DNA of 64,000 bases from Alphaproteobacteria bacterium (GTDB lineage: Bacteria; Pseudomonadota; Alphaproteobacteria; UBA7887). Shown here one piece after another: positions 12,869 through 20,842 of this stretch. Positions within the stretch are counted from its first letter, which is position 1; each line of letters opens with the position of its first letter. The notes beneath the pieces were generated by a model. That model was not told where the DNA came from. It ran no database searches and saw only the letters and a list, made by a program, of their open reading frames with translations. The stretch is from contig CBDCGL010000011.1 of NCBI GenBank assembly GCA_965216755.1, forward strand, positions 1,760,001 through 1,824,000. Direction: 5' to 3'. Position numbers and translations under genes: made by a program.

Positions 12869-15800
12869 GTGACAGTGATCGATATACGAGAATGGATGAA
12901 AGGCCTGGGCTTGGGCCAATACGCCGATGTGTTCGCACAGAATCACATCGACGAGACCCTATTGCCTGAACTAACCGAAGCCGACCTCGCAGACCTCGGT
13001 CTCAGTCTCGGCCATCGACGCAAACTACTGAAGGCGATTCGTGCGCGCGCTGCGCCGACGCGCGCGCGACCTCCAACACAAAACGAACAAGAGCCCACCG
13101 ACCTGAAGGCGCCGACGGAAAACGACTTGGAGCCGCAGGCCGAACGTCGACAGCTCACCATCATGTTTTGCAATTTGATCGACGCCGACAGGCGATCGGA
13201 GCAAATCGACCCGGAAGACCTGCAGGCTCTTATGCGCGCGTACCAACAGACCGGAACCACCGTAATAGACACCTATGATGGCCACATCGCCCAGTATTTG
13301 GCCGATGGATTCATGGCCTATTTTGGTTGGCCAACGGCACACGAGGACGATGCCGAGCGCGCCATCCGAGCAGCACTTGACATCGTCGAAGCAATCAAGG
13401 CCGTGGATGCGAAACCGAGCCTACACGTTCACATCGGCGTGGCGACCGGCCCCGTCGTCGTTGGGGATTTGGCGCTTGACCAGGCCGTGCACGCTGCGCG
13501 AATTACGCCGGCGCACGCGGTCGGCGCGACGCCCAACCTAGCCGCACGGTTACAGGGCCTTGCCCGCGCCGACGAAATCGTCATCGCGCCGTCGACTCGT
13601 CAACTTGTCGGCGCGGCCTTTGACCTCGAGGACCACGGCGAACACGCGTTGAAAGGCATTGTCGAGCCCGTCCGCGCGTGGCGGATCCGCGGTCTCGCTG
13701 ATATCGCCGGCCGTTTTGAAGCGCGCACGCAGCAGTTAACGCCCCTGGTCGGCCGCCAAAGCGAGATTGCGCTGCTCCTGGAACGTTGGGAAACGGCGAA
13801 AACCGGTGAAGGGCAAGTTGTGCTGCTCAGCGGCGAACCTGGCATCGGGAAAAGCCGAACCACACAAGCCCTACGGCATCACGTCGCCGACCAGGCACAT
13901 ATACGATTACGCTATCAATGTTCTCCTTACTATTCTAATTCGGCGCTCCATCCCTTCATCAATCAGTTTGAAGCTGCTGCACGATTTACGCCGAAGGACA
14001 CAGCTGCGCAAAAGCTTGATAAAGTCGAAAAGGTGCTACGCCAAGCGACGAACGACATAGCCGATATCGCGCCCCTGTTTGCTGCGATGTTGTCTCTGGA
14101 TACGGCAAACCGCTACCCGCCGCTCAACATGACGCCGCAGCAGCAAAAAGATCAAACGCTGCTCGCATTGACAAACCAAATCGAAGCGCTCTCGGAAAAG
14201 CTACCCGTATTGGTGATATTCGAAGATGCCCATTGGGTCGATCCCACGACGCAAGAGGTCTTGGAGCGGCTTATCGGCTGTATCACCAACCGGCGTGTTT
14301 TGCTGGTGATTACTCACAGGCCCGAATATGACGCCAACGCTCTGCATGCGGGCCATGTCACGTCATTGAGCTTGGCGCGGCTGGACCGCCGGCACGCGGC
14401 ATCCATCGCAACGGCCGTCGCGCGTGACACCCGCCTCGCCGATCGCGTTCTCGAACAAATCGTCGCTGGCACCGATGGCGTACCCTTGTTCATCGAAGAA
14501 CTGACGAAAACAGTGATCGAGACGGCCGCAGAGAAATCATCCACGCAAAATCAACCAACCGCGGGCAGCCCGCTACCTCTTTCAATCCCGACCAGTTTGC
14601 AGGATTCGTTGACGGCACGTCTGGACCGATTGGGCCCCGTGAAAGAGGTTGCACAACTTGCGGCAACACTCGGCCGCAGTTTTCGTCATGATCTTCTTCT
14701 CGCCCTGGCGCCAGACAGGCGCGAAGAGCTCGAATCGGCAATTCGGGCATTGGAAGCCGCTGAGCTTATATTCCGCCGCGGCGCTGCGCCCAATATGAGC
14801 TACCAGTTTAAGCACGCACTCGTGCAAGAGGCGGCGTACAACTCGCTCCTGATCAGTCGAAGACAGCGGCATCACGCACATATTGCCCGCACATTGGAGG
14901 CAAGGTTTCCGGAACGCGCGGAAACCGAGCCGGAATACCTGGCCCATCATTACACAGAGGCCGGACTAGCCGAGCAAGCCATCGACCATTGGCTCAAGGC
15001 CGGCCGTCGGTCGACCGAGAATGTCGCGAATGTCGAGGCCGTCGCCCAATTACACCGTGGGCTGGAACTTGTTGAGGCGTTGCCCAAGGATGGTCAACTC
15101 CAACAGCGCAAGGAACTCGATCTGCAGGTGGCCCTCGGGCCATCTCTCATTTCGACACAAGGTTATTTAGCACAGGAAACGGAAGTATGCTACGCGCGTG
15201 CCCTTTCGTTGTGCCACGCGCTTGGTGATCCGCCGGAGTTGTTTCCGATTCTCTATGGGCTATGGGTTATTCGCTTTATCCGTGCCGAGCTCGACAAGGC
15301 CCGAACACTTGGGGAAGATTTCTTGCGACGCGCTAAGGCATCCAAGGATCGGGTCGCTCTCATTTCAGCCCACAGAACTTTGGGATCTGCCCAGTTGGTT
15401 TTGGGAAATTTGTCAGATGCCCGTAAAGATCTGGAGCGCACAATCGAACTTTATGACCCGCAGCGAGATCGCTGGCTCGGTCACGTCTATTCGCTGGACC
15501 CCTACGTCACGGCCAAGGCTTACCTGTCCTGGACCTATTGGTGCCTGGGCTATCCGGGTCGCGCACTCGCCACAATCCGTGACGCGCGTGCCTTTGGTGA
15601 GGACATCTCGCAGCCCTACAGTCTAGCCCTTGAGCTGATGTTTGAAGCGATGATCCAATTCCTGTGCGGCGAGTGGACGCAGGCGCAACATGAGGCAGAG
15701 ACATGCTTGGCTGTCGCGTCCGAACATGGATTCCCGTATTGGCTTGCGTTCACCCATATCGTCAGGGGTTGGGCGCTGATCAAGGGCGGTGAAATTGACA

Positions 15801-16252
15801 CCGGCATGACCGAAGTATTGCGTGGGATCTCACATTACCGTCAAATTGATGGCGGCCTCTATTGGCCAATGGCGCATTGTGCGCTGGCCGATGGGTACAC
15901 GGCACAAGGCCAAATTGAATCGGCGCTCGCCGCGCTTGAAGACGCGACCCAGGCCGCCGCGAACACTAGCGAACATTGGATGGCGCCCGAGACCGTGCGT
16001 CTCAAGGGCGAGATTTTGGCGGAATCGGATATGGCAGCGGCCGAAGCATGCTTTGCCGCCGCAATATTACGGGCGGAAGCGCAAGACGCCAAATCTTGGC
16101 AACTCCGCGCCGCGACATCGCAAGCCCGCCTGTGGCGTCGCCATGGCATGGCCGACAAAGCACGCGATTTGCTCACTCCCATTTACAGCTGGTTCTCGGA
16201 AGGGCTCGAGACCGCCGACCTTCGCGCCGCGAAAGCTCTATTGGCCCCTTAA
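12869..16252 (+). CDS. SAM - class III adenylate/guanylate cyclase-like - AAA/STAND ATPase - TPR protein
   Basis: SAM motif WMKGLGLGQYADVF...LGHRRKLL. Cyclase ERRQLTIMFC..., YLADG and PNLAARLQ. Walker A GEPGIGKS and Walker B VIFEDAHW. FKHALVQEAAY winged helix and helical TPR C-terminus. Confidence 0.92.
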   Translation: MTVIDIREWMKGLGLGQYADVFAQNHIDETLLPELTEADLADLGLSLGHRRKLLKAIRARAAPTRARPPTQNEQEPTDLKAPTENDLEPQAERRQLTIMFCNLIDADRRSEQIDPEDLQALMRAYQQTGTTVIDTYDGHIAQYLADGFMAYFGWPTAHEDDAERAIRAALDIVEAIKAVDAKPSLHVHIGVATGPVVVGDLALDQAVHAARITPAHAVGATPNLAARLQGLARADEIVIAPSTRQLVGAAFDLEDHGEHALKGIVEPVRAWRIRGLADIAGRFEARTQQLTPLVGRQSEIALLLERWETAKTGEGQVVLLSGEPGIGKSRTTQALRHHVADQAHIRLRYQCSPYYSNSALHPFINQFEAAARFTPKDTAAQKLDKVEKVLRQATNDIADIAPLFAAMLSLDTANRYPPLNMTPQQQKDQTLLALTNQIEALSEKLPVLVIFEDAHWVDPTTQEVLERLIGCITNRRVLLVITHRPEYDANALHAGHVTSLSLARLDRRHAASIATAVARDTRLADRVLEQIVAGTDGVPLFIEELTKTVIETAAEKSSTQNQPTAGSPLPLSIPTSLQDSLTARLDRLGPVKEVAQLAATLGRSFRHDLLLALAPDRREELESAIRALEAAELIFRRGAAPNMSYQFKHALVQEAAYNSLLISRRQRHHAHIARTLEARFPERAETEPEYLAHHYTEAGLAEQAIDHWLKAGRRSTENVANVEAVAQLHRGLELVEALPKDGQLQQRKELDLQVALGPSLISTQGYLAQETEVCYARALSLCHALGDPPELFPILYGLWVIRFIRAELDKARTLGEDFLRRAKASKDRVALISAHRTLGSAQLVLGNLSDARKDLERTIELYDPQRDRWLGHVYSLDPYVTAKAYLSWTYWCLGYPGRALATIRDARAFGEDISQPYSLALELMFEAMIQFLCGEWTQAQHEAETCLAVASEHGFPYWLAFTHIVRGWALIKGGEIDTGMTEVLRGISHYRQIDGGLYWPMAHCALADGYTAQGQIESALAALEDATQAAANTSEHWMAPETVRLKGEILAESDMAAAEACFAAAILRAEAQDAKSWQLRAATSQARLWRRHGMADKARDLLTPIYSWFSEGLETADLRAAKALLAP

Positions 16253-16293: not shown

Positions 16294-17058
16294 CTAAGCT
16301 TCGATCTCAGGCCAAAGGACGTTGTCGACCTTTGTCAAAGCCGCGTCCAGAGTAACCGGGGTCAACTGTAGGCCGCGCGATACGGCCGTCAACAACAACC
16401 GTTGATCGCCAACCTCGAAAATCCGGCAAAGGGTTTCCTTGTTTTCGTCGTCGTGTATGAGCAGAGATAAAGGTGTCGCCTCGCCACCACGCGCGGCGCG
16501 ATCCGCAAACAACAAAACGAGTGAGGACAATGCGGCCAGGCGATCCAAATCGCGCGCATTGCTGCTGGCTGACAAAGGCAGACCATTGTCATCGCTCAGC
16601 AGCACCGCTTCGAATTGACCCTTTTCCGAAATCTGGTCCAACAGATGGGTTAGGTCGCTGCGACGCCCATGCCCGGTTTGAACATCGGAAAGCTCCAGCG
16701 ACAACCGTTCCCGTTTCATGAGCGGCGTCAAGATATCTTGAACAATGACACGGAGGTCCTCGACTTCCTTGTCACGCCGGACGAGCGGATGAATAGCTTC
16801 CTTAATTATTTCATGAACGCTGTTATTCTGCTCCAGCAAAACTTCGAATGTGCGATCTCGATTTGACGTCAGCGCCTCTGCCGTTGCCTGTTGATAGGCA
16901 AGGTCTTCGCGCGCCCGCATAACGTCGTTCAGCAAACGGCGCGCCTGCTGGCGTAGCCGCGATCGGGCGCGGAACCCCTGCCGAGCTCCGAATATATAGC
17001 CTGCCAATAATAGTGCGGCGCCGGAGCCAACGCCTATGAAGACGATGAACGCGATCAT
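16294..17058 (-). CDS. Membrane-anchored coiled-coil protein with C-terminal Roadblock/LC7-like domain
   Basis: N-terminal hydrophobic helix followed by an Arg-rich stretch and a heptad-like region. C-terminal FEAVLLSDDNGLPLSAS...DLDRLAALSSLVL...LLLTAVS fits the Roadblock pattern. Confidence 0.7.
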   Translation of the reverse strand: MIAFIVFIGVGSGAALLLAGYIFGARQGFRARSRLRQQARRLLNDVMRAREDLAYQQATAEALTSNRDRTFEVLLEQNNSVHEIIKEAIHPLVRRDKEVEDLRVIVQDILTPLMKRERLSLELSDVQTGHGRRSDLTHLLDQISEKGQFEAVLLSDDNGLPLSASSNARDLDRLAALSSLVLLFADRAARGGEATPLSLLIHDDENKETLCRIFEVGDQRLLLTAVSRGLQLTPVTLDAALTKVDNVLWPEIEA

Positions 17059-17963
17059 GATCCTCCCTCCGCGCTCGGTTCTTCACAGACGGCGGCGTCA
17101 TCCACAAACACATGAACACGCCGGTTTGCGCCCGACCACCCCGGCATGCCAACTACAGGCTTTGTTTCTCCAAATCCCGTTCGGCGCAGCCGGTACTCCG
17201 GAACACCCGCGGCCGTCAACATTTCGGCTACCGCCAATGCACGCAGCTGACTGACAGCGAGGTTTCGGTGAACTCCGCCCCAAGAGTCGGCATGCCCTTC
17301 GATAGTCACTATGGCCGATGGGTGGTCACGCAACCATTTTGTTAATCGGGCGATGTCGGCTTGCGGCAAAACTGCTTTAGGTTTGGTGTCGTTAAACCCA
17401 AAATTGACCGACAGCATGGGCGGGCACGATTTTGATCCTGCCGTCGTCGTCGTCCGTGGCGCGATGGACCGATCCGCAGCGTCTACCAGGCCGATACCCG
17501 TGGTATCTCGCATGAGGATCTCTCTCGCATCTTCGAACCGTCCGTACAGCATCAATGCGCGCGCCCGCTGCATCCGTTGTAATCGACTGTCAAGATCCTC
17601 GATGGTCTGATCAATATCGACGTTTAGTGGTGCCCGCCGCGGCGCCACCATCGGCGCTTTGTCGGCCGCGCCGACCAATTTGCCACGGCGCATGTCTTTG
17701 TCCGCCAAAGCAGGCTGTACCATTATCGTCGCTGAGTGCGCTAAAGGCCGTGTCGGCGTCGAACCCGCAACGAATGGCTTCCCTGCAAGTCCCGACCAGA
17801 CTTCGACAAACGACGGCACCTCGCCCCGCGAAAACATGACCCAACCGCCGGCGAATGAAATCATAATCGCCATGATTGCAATGGCTGTTGCCATCGGCGA
17901 CGTAACGGTTTCGCAAAACACGTCAAATTCTTCGGGTATGCGCAAGGCATGATCAGAGAACAT
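17055..17963 (-). CDS. OmpA/MotB C-terminal (peptidoglycan-binding) domain protein with N-terminal TM anchor
   Basis: TM helix MATAIAIMAIMISFAGGWVMF. OmpA motifs VNFGFN, IEGHADSWG..RNLAVSQLRALAV, GFGETKP and NRRVHV. Its stop overlaps the ATG of the next gene. Confidence 0.88.
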   Translation of the reverse strand: MFSDHALRIPEEFDVFCETVTSPMATAIAIMAIMISFAGGWVMFSRGEVPSFVEVWSGLAGKPFVAGSTPTRPLAHSATIMVQPALADKDMRRGKLVGAADKAPMVAPRRAPLNVDIDQTIEDLDSRLQRMQRARALMLYGRFEDAREILMRDTTGIGLVDAADRSIAPRTTTTAGSKSCPPMLSVNFGFNDTKPKAVLPQADIARLTKWLRDHPSAIVTIEGHADSWGGVHRNLAVSQLRALAVAEMLTAAGVPEYRLRRTGFGETKPVVGMPGWSGANRRVHVFVDDAAVCEEPSAEGGS

Positions 17964-18039
17964 CTCAAAACTGGCCTCCCCCGTTTAGCCTCTGGTGCGC
18001 CCGTCATGCGACTGCGGCGGCCGGGACCGTCGAGACCAT

Positions 18040-18801
18040 CTACAATTCAGGCACCCGAAACAGATCGCTCACTACGTCGACGCCGCATTCCAACGTGGCA
18101 CACCAATCAATGAACTTGTTCACCATCTTTTTGCCCTCAAAGACGGCGCCATGTTGCGGAGCAATCATCTCGATATCCAAGGCCCGCACCATTTCGGCCC
18201 ACGCCCGCATGACACGATTTGACGCCATATAGCGGCGATGAAATCCATCCATGAAAGATAGATGGTCGTCGAAATCAGGCACGATTGTGTAATCCATGCC
18301 CAGCGACGCCCCAAGATCGCCGCTGTAAAGGATCTTGGCGACTGGATCGTAAAGCTGAAAATTGCCAACGCTGTGCAGAAAATGGGCAGGCAAGGCCGCC
18401 AACTGGGCGCCATCAAGGTCGAAAACCATGCCTTCGTCGGGGATCGGATGCAAACGCTCTTCAACCAGATGATCAAGCCCGAAATGAGGAACGAAGCGAA
18501 TCCACAATTGCGAAACGTAGGCATCCGCGTCCGTGGTCATAAGCCAACCATTGACGGCCGCGACAATGTCCGGATCTTGATGAGACAGGAATATATACCG
18601 CAACGACATGCGTCCCAGCAGCGACATCGTCGCACCGAGGACCTTGCCATAAACCTTGTGGCCGCCGGGATCCAATATCATGCCCGACTCGCCATGGATG
18701 ATAACGTGCTGATTGGCTTGCACCGCCAGGCCACCAAGTCCAAAGTCTTCAAGCATGATGTTTTGATGGGTACCGTCGTCATAGAGGACAGTGTTTGGCA
18801 T
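18040..18801 (-). CDS. Stand-alone di-iron metallo-beta-lactamase-fold protein, ODP (oxygen-binding di-iron protein)/FprA-N-like
   Basis: QANQHVI..ILDPGG, LSHQDPD, PAHFLHSVGN, SGDLG, FHRRYM and IAPQHG. 253 aa with no flavodoxin domain. Confidence 0.85.
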   Translation of the reverse strand: MPNTVLYDDGTHQNIMLEDFGLGGLAVQANQHVIIHGESGMILDPGGHKVYGKVLGATMSLLGRMSLRYIFLSHQDPDIVAAVNGWLMTTDADAYVSQLWIRFVPHFGLDHLVEERLHPIPDEGMVFDLDGAQLAALPAHFLHSVGNFQLYDPVAKILYSGDLGASLGMDYTIVPDFDDHLSFMDGFHRRYMASNRVMRAWAEMVRALDIEMIAPQHGAVFEGKKMVNKFIDWCATLECGVDVVSDLFRVPEL

Positions 18802-18865
18802 TCCGGCTCCTTTCTACGACATCGGGACATCATTGATCTCTGGCGACGCCCCGGCCCACGCAAAC

Positions 18866-19264
18866 TCACAGAATGTTTTGAATATTGCTGATGGTCTCAC
18901 GCATATCGAAAAAGATGAGCCCCAGCTTGGCGTTATCGTTGGCCACAACCAGCAGCAAAACACCGCGCCCGGCGTCAATCAGAACCGCATAACCTTGCTC
19001 ACCGCGAACGACGACCTCTTCAACGGTGCCACGGCCCAACTCCGCCGCGCCGCGCGTGCCGAGGCTGAGAATTGTCGCGCTCATGCCCGCGACCCGCGTT
19101 TCGTCCAGGTGTTCCGGAAGTGAACTCGCGATCATCAATCCGTCTTCCGAAATTAGCGCTGCCGCTTCGACGTCCGGCGATCCGGTTTGCAATGATCGCA
19201 ACACGTTGGTCAGGTTTTCCGTACGGTTCAGAGAAAACGCCTTGCGTGTGGCCTCGCGTGCCAT
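18866..19264 (-). CDS. Roadblock/LC7 (MglB-like) protein
   Basis: DVEAAALISEDGLMIASSLP...RVAGMSATILSLGTRGAAELGRG.VEEVVVRGEQGY...KLGLIFFDM. ATG at 19264 with an upstream GGAG. Confidence 0.92.
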   Translation of the reverse strand: MAREATRKAFSLNRTENLTNVLRSLQTGSPDVEAAALISEDGLMIASSLPEHLDETRVAGMSATILSLGTRGAAELGRGTVEEVVVRGEQGYAVLIDAGRGVLLLVVANDNAKLGLIFFDMRETISNIQNIL

Positions 19265-20632
19265 CGTCTCGCTCCTATTCACAGATTGGTCGTGTAGGCG
19301 ACCTGGTCTAAGTCGGATTGCCATGGTTCGCTGACATCTTGGTGAGTCGATTGATAAGCAAAAAAGTCGCGCGCCATAGGGCTGACGGCCTGGCGCGGCG
19401 TGGGCGATATTCGTTTCGTTGTCGCGCGCGGCGCGCCGCCCGCAAATGTCGGACACTTCGTTCGAGTGAATGAATGTTCACCTCTGGCGCACGCGGCGCG
19501 ACGCGCGCTTGAGCTGACGCCGCGCTATTCTGACAGGATGAACGCTCTCCCAAATCTGACAAAACATCCCGCTCCTTGCGCCAGCGATACTGTTCCGTAA
19601 GAGAAATATTTGCTTAAGCATATACCTACACACGGGTCGTCAGATTGACTTCGGTTAAGTGTCGCAAGATTTCACAAGGTCAATTCCTCACGAATCGGTA
19701 TCCTGCTGCCTACTAGTTGATGCCATGACACCCAAATAGGTGACAAGTCGCCGCTTCAATCGATATGCCCAAATAATTGGACATAGTTTATTAGTTTGAA
19801 CCTATCTAACGTTTTGCAATGATCCGAATGACTACATTCAAGCCGCAGCAGCGCGGTGCTGCCGGACCGTTCGACACAGGGCGTCAGATCAAGCTGCTAT
19901 TGTTATCGTAGCAATTATCTTTGCGACATTCATATCCACACATATTTTAAAGTTATTTTTGACGACCGCGAATTTGGCTTTAAACAAACGATTGATTTAA
20001 ACATGCGACCAAGTGACAGCCCGGTCGCAGCGGGCGTCGTATGGAATTGCACAAGGCGCGGCACTGGTATGGCTGATCTTTGTCGCGCGCGGACACAAGA
20101 TGGCACCTTGACGCTTAGCCCGATGAAGCAGTCGGGACATTGACATACGATTGGGACACTAGCGAAGCGATAACAATTTGATCCATGGAATGGATCTGGT
20201 CCTTGTTTCACCAAAGGTCTGGCTGAGCGCCGCGCAAGTATGGAACGGCCTCTTTGCGATTGGCCGACAAGGCATCTCGGAACTGCTAGCGCGGCTTCAC
20301 CTGCCATTCGGCGGCGCTGATATCAGCTTGTCACTGTTTGATTTTTCTTTTTCATTCGCCCGACACCGCGCAATGACCGGGCGCCTAACTACAGCTTGGT
20401 CGCGCGAAGCAATGCCTGACAGACGCTTTTTTGCAGTGAAACACTTGATGGGGCGACCAAATTGCCGCAAAATCAACAATGTTGAGTGGAGACGTATCGC
20501 ATGTGTTTCGCGATGATTGAATTGCCGTTGACCCGGTAAGCTCGGTTCCTTCCGACATTGTGAGCGTTGAAACGATCCCGCAGCCCACTCAGACGGGTTG
20601 CGTTCTTCCAAATCTCTGTCAGAGGTATGCTT

Positions 20633-20842
20633 ATGCCTACCGGAACTGTGAAATGGTTCAATCCCACGAAGGGATATGGGTTCATCGAACCGGAAGATGG
20701 CTCGAAGGATGCCTTCGTGCACATTTCCGCTGTCCAACGCGCAGGCCTAACCGGGCTCAGCGAAGGACAGAAAGTGTCATACGAATTGCAGACTGGACAA
20801 AACGGCAAGTCATCCGCCGAGAACTTGTCGTTGGTCGACTAG
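20633..20842 (+). CDS. cspA: Cold-shock protein
   Basis: [18 protein letters not shown]...DAFVHISAV (RNP1/RNP2 motifs). Confidence 0.96.

Follow-up and report, generated by a model that had tools for sequence, protein, structure and literature searches.

A conserved cassette of four genes joins an oxygen-binding di-iron protein to two Roadblock-type proteins and an OmpA-like protein

A 64,000-nucleotide stretch of the genome of an alphaproteobacterium of the UBA7887 lineage (assembly GCA_965216755.1, contig CBDCGL010000011.1, positions 1,760,001 to 1,824,000; hereafter the window) contains a cassette of four co-oriented genes on the minus strand. Head to tail, these encode a soluble Roadblock protein (RB1), a stand-alone oxygen-binding di-iron protein (ODP), an OmpA-like protein and a membrane-anchored protein with a predicted Roadblock fold (TMRB). 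The same four genes recur in the same order in several phyla, and we conclude that the cassette is real, conserved and testable, and that its mechanism is a matter of inference. Our favored reading, in which we have slightly more belief than doubt, is that the cassette is a self-contained, horizontally spread module for sensing O2 or Fe(II), mounted on a Roadblock platform that is anchored to the membrane and to peptidoglycan.

The list of open reading frames (ORFs) and their coordinates agree with the arrangement proposed in an earlier reading of the sequence without database searches (the sequence-only reading). RB1 (18866..19264, 132 residues) and ODP (18040..18801, 253 residues) are separated by 64 nt, ODP and the OmpA-like gene (17055..17963, 302 residues) by 76 nt, and the stop codon of the latter shares a 4-nt ATGA overlap with the start of TMRB (16294..17058, 254 residues). 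The RB1 frame (18866-19456) is open to 19456, and the ATG at 19264, which gives the 132-residue product, has an AGGAG ribosome-binding site 7 nt ahead of it; the ATG of ODP is preceded by AGGAG as well. None of the four proteins is named by an NCBIfam equivalog.

Recurrence was examined with one genome per species in the best 80 of at least 574 ODP relatives, searched with the four window proteins (tblastn); loci were taken as assessable where at least 600 nt were available upstream of ODP (n = 77) or at least 2500 nt downstream of it (n = 72). Directly ahead of ODP, a Roadblock gene is present in 75 of the 77 loci assessable on that side; in 69 it is more than 50% identical to RB1 (56-74%), and in the other six no more than 35%. 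OmpA and TMRB both follow downstream, in the same order, in 59 of 72 loci, and two more have TMRB together with an OmpA gene too divergent for the query. All-against-all clustering of the 1020 ORFs called in 81 regions gives four big clusters that correspond to the cassette genes (74, 61, 53 and 48 members), followed by one of only 13, so that no further family is widely shared around them; because the ORF caller was crude (farthest start codon, and a filter on third-position G+C), these sizes fall below the tblastn counts. The spacing is conserved also: the gap between RB1 and ODP has a median of 57 nt (n = 71), and the OmpA stop and TMRB start overlap by 4 nt in 19 of the 38 loci with a placeable start and by 1 nt in three. 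Mean column identity is 75% for ODP, 69% for RB1 (alignment A2), 36% for TMRB and 26% for OmpA. The four-gene set is no chance adjacency, and RB1 is the near-constant partner gene of ODP, the pair forming the conserved core.

The carriers, as labelled, are Alpha-, Beta- and Gammaproteobacteria, Myxococcota, one Acidobacteriota metagenome-assembled genome (MAG) and one Acidimicrobiales MAG, and MAG bin assignments call for caution. The recurrence in one order from the proteobacterial classes through Myxococcota to the Acidobacteriota MAG answers, in the affirmative, the neighborhood check that the sequence-only reading had proposed. By their labels the carriers include methanotrophs, nitrifiers, polyphosphate- and glycogen-accumulating bacteria, photosynthetic Bradyrhizobium and purple bacteria; such bacteria live at oxic-anoxic boundaries. 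ODP was not found in the window's family (22 genomes searched), and RB1 occurs in one of 401 sampled genomes in the window's class, which is the window's own. Because identity is high across phyla and the distribution is patchy, we infer that the cassette has spread horizontally.

Some loci (the locus numbers are ours) depart from the simple layout by duplication or insertion. Two ORFs of the RB1 cluster lie upstream of ODP in each of L023, L047, L072 and L078, and in the first of these, from a Methylocystaceae MAG, about 2.3 kb separate ODP from OmpA (L023:6754-9030) and include an extra RB1-cluster ORF of 287 residues as called. Three MAGs have the RB1-ODP module twice, on separate contigs (L039/L040, L058/L060 and L051/L069); all six of these loci have RB1 and ODP, and L051 is without OmpA and TMRB. 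These modules could be paralogous cassettes or reflect bin redundancy.

RB1 is a single-domain Roadblock/LC7 protein that matches Robl_LC7 at 58.5 bits against a Pfam cut-off of 23, and its nearest solved relative is a Roadblock from Thorarchaeota (7f8m_A, E = 3.6e-27), followed by CvnB5. The ODP, which has a metallo-beta-lactamase (MBL) fold, scores 233.7 bits with PF19583 (cut-off 27.2) and aligns over its full length with solved ODPs (6qrq_B, E = 2.1e-71, residues 3-249; 6qnm_A, E = 1.3e-63, residues 3-248). Its HQDPD, HFLH and QHG motifs are invariant among 51 aligned relatives, as are residues H74, Q75, D76, P77, D78, H140, H143, D162, Q216 and H217. According to PMC7785958, the unusual ODP ligand is a Gln at motif 5, and motif 2 is without the third His; the window protein has this ligand set, with Q216 at motif 5. 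Pfam matches are limited to ODP and Lactamase_B, with no flavodoxin or rubredoxin domain. On these features gene 2 is an orthodox ODP, and binding of iron and O2 is predicted for the window protein. Its database relatives number 4355 at E<=0.001; after the window's own, the best 120 of them are 71-79% identical, almost all of 249-264 residues, and come from several phyla. Prediction of a complex of ODP with RB1, both entered as alignments, returned a score of 0.01 and a mark of 0.32, which is evidence neither way.

The OmpA-like protein has one hydrophobic segment (residues ~24-44) with a short conserved motif right before it, a Pro/Ala-rich linker of variable length (35 relatives), and an OmpA domain at residues 202-278 (PF00691, 53.2 bits, cut-off 27.2). 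Within the domain G223, D226, G229, N234, S238 and R241 are invariant in 35 sequences, D226 and R241 being presumably the residues that bind the peptide stem, and two further invariant residues, C180 and C293, bracket the domain. The named OmpA-type equivalogs of NCBIfam (Pal, YiaD, MotB, TssL and others) all score below their cut-offs, the best being YiaD at 56.5 bits vs 175, and the matches are domain-only. By its residues gene 3 carries a canonical, predicted peptidoglycan-binding OmpA domain, and from the overlap we expect it to be translationally coupled to gene 4. The window protein has two features of its own: an insertion of about 55 residues (~115-170) that is present in none of 34 aligned relatives and is predicted to fall after the membrane helix and before the OmpA domain, and a Cys in the pre-helix motif where at least 90% of relatives have Gly.

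TMRB begins with a hydrophobic segment (residues 1-24), and nine Lys or Arg residues occur in the next 26. An AlphaFold2 (AF2) model built with 42 relatives (pLDDT 89) shows a long helix at residues 2-124 and an a-b-b-a-b-b-b-a domain at residues 134-253, with pLDDT above 90 across most of residues 140-250. The top Foldseek matches of the model are MglB (6hjm, E = 5.6e-7, probability 1.00, TM-score on the target 0.69), LAMTOR2/p14 and other Roadblocks. Against PDB sequences the best match of the TMRB profile is cvnB5 (E = 0.0043), of 42 family members 23 have a Robl_LC7 match with E<=0.01, and a protein atlas returns unnamed clusters of the atlas itself along with a Roadblock lead at 0.78. Because of the AF2 model and its Foldseek matches we assign gene 4 as a Roadblock by fold and not by sequence; in the model, an N-terminal membrane helix and then a long helix precede the Roadblock fold. 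Representatives number 370 at E<=0.001 and 165 at E<=1e-30 among 1.84 billion, and the 150 matches listed have lengths of 143-423 residues, too short for a large extra domain. No Pfam model covers TMRB, which makes up a compact family.

The sequence-only reading had described these products as a soluble MglB-like Roadblock, a stand-alone HQDPD/HFLH/QHG di-iron MBL protein without a flavodoxin, a peptidoglycan-binding OmpA protein with a transmembrane (TM) anchor and a TM-coiled-coil-Roadblock protein. The first three descriptions stand on domain scores well above cut-off, with the single-domain make-up and invariant motifs of the second and the hydrophobic segment of the third; the MBL protein is an ODP by its end-to-end alignment with 6qrq and 6qnm. 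The fourth holds by predicted fold, its sequence score being below the Pfam cut-off. No P-loop GTPase, methyl-accepting chemotaxis protein (MCP) or kinase adjoins the cassette within the window (ORF list, Pfam, homologue search), as had been claimed. When relatives are considered this claim stands in part: no homologue of the GTPase was found in the 80 loci, but an AAA_22 fusion, a kinase with a PATAN regulator, and in a sister clade a GTPase, are found in related loci as set out below.

An AAA_22 P-loop domain stands ahead of RB1 in 13 gamma- and betaproteobacterial loci, and in 12 of them it is fused in frame with no stop codon between; among NCBIfam models the fused domain comes closest to the XrtA/PEP-CTERM-associated ATPase, with 97 bits where the cut-off is 324.5. 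Two-component genes are found in six loci from Myxococcota and 'delta' bacteria, with a PAS/HisKA/HATPase kinase upstream of RB1 in five and a REC-DUF4388 (PATAN) regulator after ODP in five; next come either OmpA and TMRB or, in three loci, a ParA/MinD-like ATPase and a protein of 216 residues that weakly matches Roadblock (E = 0.0065). RB1 and ODP are separated by a protoglobin gene in one locus (L075), and in six gammaproteobacterial loci ODP is accompanied only by a divergent Roadblock, which is 31-33% identical to RB1. In these minimal pairs (L055, L056, L063, L079, L080 and L084) genes for a HemN-like radical SAM protein, an outer-membrane beta-barrel and a Sel1-repeat protein precede, in conserved order.

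The Pfam ODP model has matches in 129 of 401 sampled genomes of the phylum, long flavodiiron-like frames included. Among the best 30 ODP loci from these genomes are 16, with an ODP 54-61% identical to the window's, that have a Roadblock immediately downstream of ODP and that represent a sister clade. The gene just upstream of ODP in this clade has only a sub-threshold LAMTOR5 match, and hhalign comparison with RB1 gave nothing (E = 0.56); the fold search gave a Roadblock, since its model (17 sequences, pLDDT 85) matches MglB 6hjm with E = 2.6e-8 and TM-scores of 0.69-0.73. The sister-clade ODP sits between two Roadblock-fold genes. Downstream follow a protoglobin (in three of four extended loci: L117, L118 and L120), a protein of 210 residues and an MglA/CvnD-like small GTPase, which is present in all four extended loci and whose start is seen in six short ones. 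The best match of the GTPase is ATP_bind_1, which CvnD-type GTPases match as well. The 210-residue protein (L119:7814-8446 and homologues) belongs to no known family, always lies between the Roadblock or protoglobin and the GTPase, is 70-100% identical in 11 loci, and may be a CvnC-like or exchange-factor-like component. Homologues of this protein and of the GTPase are absent from both the 80 loci and the window region.

The extended sister-clade loci, L117-L120, show some further genes. The cluster (for example L119:2994-9030) has a second trio that consists of a protein of ~100-118 residues, a Roadblock of 160-161 and a protein of 132-135; L117 has two protoglobin genes and a second Roadblock, of 121 residues. 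A divergent calcineurin-like phosphoesterase lies upstream of the cluster, and an SLT/LysM lytic transglycosylase comes after the GTPase.

In a FastTree phylogeny of 111 ODP sequences, all of the Roadblock-linked ODPs form one clade with support of 0.994. The GTPase type makes up one branch, and in the other the kinase/regulator type branches off basally to the four-gene type. Three loci labelled Defluviicoccus group with the window.

Roadblocks are regulators of small GTPases and usually pair with one another. In the favored reading, RB1 would accordingly pair with the Roadblock domain of TMRB to give a platform at the inner membrane, much as the sequence-only reading had proposed when it let a heterodimer of the two Roadblocks tether the sensor. 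The TMRB Roadblock domain would lie in the cytoplasm, because the nine basic residues after the TM helix call for this under the positive-inside rule, and the OmpA domain in the periplasm, because of its two invariant cysteines and its peptidoglycan-binding role; together the two proteins would form a membrane anchor fixed to the wall. ODP would bind the Roadblock platform, its binding being altered by its iron or peroxo state, and would stand at, or upstream of, the position held by the small GTPase in the sister clade. The two candidate outputs are that the sensor is held in position and that the envelope is altered. We read the module as one of sensing and signalling because the loci of relatives carry a histidine kinase, a REC-PATAN regulator, a protoglobin and a GTPase. 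Since ODP is flanked by, or adjacent to, two Roadblock-fold genes here and in the sister clade alike, the comparison suggests that a Roadblock pair and ODP are an ancient unit, and that the four-gene form swapped a soluble second Roadblock and a GTPase for a membrane-anchored Roadblock. A positioning or anchoring role fits the ParA/MinD-like ATPase that takes the place of OmpA and TMRB in three Myxococcota loci. A more specific proposal, which we offer tentatively and think rather unlikely, is that ODP acts as a gas- or metal-operated switch in the place of the small GTPase on a Roadblock heterodimer; the platform, fixed to the wall through OmpA, would read the iron or peroxo state of ODP as MglB-type platforms read GTP or GDP.

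Several observations weigh against this account. TMRB scores 17.6 bits with Robl_LC7, below the cut-off of 23, and its profile comparison with RB1 is weak (hhalign, E = 0.019, probability 2.5%). Both OmpA and TMRB are missing from 11 of the 72 assessable loci, so that the RB1-ODP pair can do without the anchor. Acidic residues prevail in the N-terminal flank of the OmpA protein (one Lys or Arg, five Asp or Glu), and the topology of this protein is argued from the function of the domain and not from charge. The ODP tree was rooted, by assumption, among the MCP-type ODPs of the outgroup, which have a short MCP-like gene upstream. The window's genome, which is 99.8% complete, has one Robl_LC7 match over cut-off and one TMRB; the sister-clade GTPase as query revealed no small GTPase in it, PF03029 finds only a 22.9-bit P-loop fragment, and there is no DUF4388/PATAN domain. 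Neither an AAA_22 fusion nor a remnant of one is present in the window region, and the only AAA_22-like match in the genome lies ~600 kb away inside a frame of 1473 residues. The cassette stands alone in this genome, with no recognisable output partner.

The missing GTPase could also mean that the cassette is a decayed Roadblock/small-GTPase system of the MglA-MglB or conservon-like kind from which the GTPase has gone, leaving it without function or as a residue. In favor of this, the sister clade has a Roadblock-fold gene, ODP, Roadblock, the 210-residue protein and an MglA/CvnD-like GTPase, and a GTPase of that kind was not found in the window's genome. However, the sequence-only reading had tied decay to homologous operons always carrying an MglA GTPase, and not one of the 80 loci has a homologue of the GTPase; moreover, the four-gene form without it is conserved in the 59 of 72 loci noted above, in several phyla, its ODPs are 67-78% identical with frames intact, and the GTPase type is a sister clade in the tree and is not scattered through it. 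Because the GTPase-less form is conserved and is so placed, we regard it as a stable alternative design, and decay as the least probable of the explanations that we have considered. Only marginally more credible, and still very unlikely, is the view that ODP is a di-iron enzyme that reduces O2, NO or peroxide like the flavodiiron core, so that the cassette protects the envelope and does no signalling. Close homologues are indeed named 'flavorubredoxin' or 'FprA family A-type flavoprotein' by their sources, and long flavodiiron-like frames of other genomes are likewise picked up by the Pfam ODP model, but the protein has 253 residues without a flavodoxin or rubredoxin domain and aligns end to end with solved sensor ODPs. 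Its ligands are those of the ODP type as given in PMC7785958, including the Gln at motif 5, and the proteins conserved beside it are adaptors and signalling proteins (Roadblock, histidine kinase, response regulator, GTPase, protoglobin) and not reductases.

Another explanation turns the order of importance around and makes the cassette chiefly a peptidoglycan-anchored device for assembly or positioning, of the ExeA/GspA kind, in which a P-loop ATPase goes with a wall-binding part; ODP and RB1 would be regulatory accessories, and the ATPase would be encoded in cis in certain lineages and elsewhere supplied in trans or absent. ExeA combines an AAA_22 domain with a wall-binding domain. The in-frame fusion of AAA_22 to RB1 in 12 of the 13 loci that have it, the XrtA/PEP-CTERM-associated ATPase as its best match (below cut-off) and the replacement of OmpA-TMRB by a ParA/MinD-like ATPase in three Myxococcota loci all point this way. 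Yet only 13 of 80 loci have AAA_22; no remnant of it occurs in the window, the sole match in the genome being the distant one in the 1473-residue frame, and no secretion, pilus or exopolysaccharide genes are conserved beside the cassette. We consider this explanation unlikely, though less so than decay or an enzymatic role, and favor the O2- or Fe(II)-sensing module on an anchored Roadblock platform.

In the literature searched we found no published link between ODP and Roadblocks and no description of the cassette, in keeping with the sequence-only reading, to which the combination was new; the supplementary neighborhood tables of the 2019 ODP paper may list such neighbors. PMC7666581 treats ODP as an O2 sensor for chemotaxis, and PMC7319448, which summarizes the 2019 paper, has ODP recruited to chemoreceptors and to 'different signal transduction related genes'. 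The ODP-chemoreceptor pair (Treponema denticola TDE2498/TDE2496 and the Thermotoga maritima ODP; 6qnm, 6r9n, 6qrq and 6qwo) shares with the cassette the ODP family, its length and its ligand motifs, as well as the arrangement of a small stand-alone sensor encoded beside a signalling partner, but the partner here is a Roadblock and not an MCP, and there are no adjacent chemotaxis genes. No sensor-less MCP stands by ODP among the window neighbors or in the conserved clusters of the 80 loci; an ODP of 44% identity in another genome of the window's class lies inside a CheR-CheD-CheB-MCP cluster and is of the known type. By analogy only, the cassette may be likened to Ragulator/LAMTOR, membrane-anchored Roadblock heterodimers on which Rag GTPases have their platform: structures of LAMTOR2/p14 are among the matches of the TMRB domain, and the Roadblock platform would be on a membrane, but here the anchor is a TM helix with a peptidoglycan-binding partner and there is no GTPase.

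Among bacterial systems, RB1 and the TMRB domain share the fold of MglB, and Roadblock-fold proteins are encoded together as in MglA/MglB(/MglC) of Myxococcus and other 'coupled' MglB systems; unlike these, the cassette is without an MglA-like GTPase, none having been found either within a distance of four genes or in the rest of the genome, and one of its Roadblocks is membrane-anchored. PMC4316618 counts 328 orphan MglB homologues, none characterised, and the Roadblocks of the cassette are 'orphan' MglB homologues by the definition given there. The Streptomyces conservon (CvnA kinase, CvnB Roadblock, CvnC and CvnD GTPase) is alike in that RB1 matches CvnB5 (3leq, E = 1.4e-9) and that the Myxococcota versions of the cassette begin with a histidine kinase and then a Roadblock gene. 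However, the window has no kinase, DUF742-type protein or GTPase, so that the Roadblock is the sole shared component, and the conservon as presented in PMC4316618 has no counterpart of ODP, OmpA or TMRB. The nearest architectural analogue is the wall-anchored signalling set of the Group 1 Rup GTPases (Wuichet and Sogaard-Andersen 2014; PMC4316618), in whose neighborhoods, according to that source, a signalling switch is joined by a coiled-coil protein and by a second protein that combines an inner-membrane helix with an OmpA domain at its C terminus. There the switch is the Rup GTPase and the output a cyclic di-GMP enzyme or similar, whereas here a GTPase is absent, ODP is the sensor and the coiled coil ends in a Roadblock.

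The region between the cassette and the next upstream gene, which is a divergent cold-shock-like (cspA-like) gene at 20567-20842, spans 19265..20566 and presumably holds the cassette promoter. About 1.1-1.3 kb of it upstream of RB1 contains only short ORFs of doubtful coding value, and no remnant of an AAA_22 domain or of a GTPase is found in it. A sigma-70 consensus scan of this region found no site, and promoter and terminator scans gave nothing exceeding shuffled expectation. The window has no tRNA gene or Rfam family, and thus no island marker; its G+C minimum, 0.534, falls at 18001-20000. On the other side, convergent with the cassette and ending 42 nt from its last stop codon, is a gene on the plus strand (12869-16252) for a protein of 1127 residues with SAM, class III nucleotide cyclase, AAA_16 and TPR domains (Pfam). 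This gene was ruled out as a partner of the cassette, as it forms a singleton cluster and the adjacency is not conserved elsewhere. Three other loci have an unrelated STAND/TPR gene upstream, which we take to be coincidence.

ODP has so far been understood as an O2/Fe(II) sensor that feeds chemoreceptors. The cassette gives it a second, widespread wiring, and probably represents a new way of wiring a known sensor; at the same time it offers a candidate partner to a large group among the hundreds of orphan bacterial Roadblocks, and brings to light in TMRB a compact and so far unnamed family of membrane Roadblocks. Several cultured carriers exist, among them Methylocystis sp. B8 and Bradyrhizobium sp. 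ORS 375, so that the idea is directly testable. If ODP does stand in the place of the GTPase, the cassette would be a Roadblock signalling platform without any NTPase and would provide a new output route for ODP.

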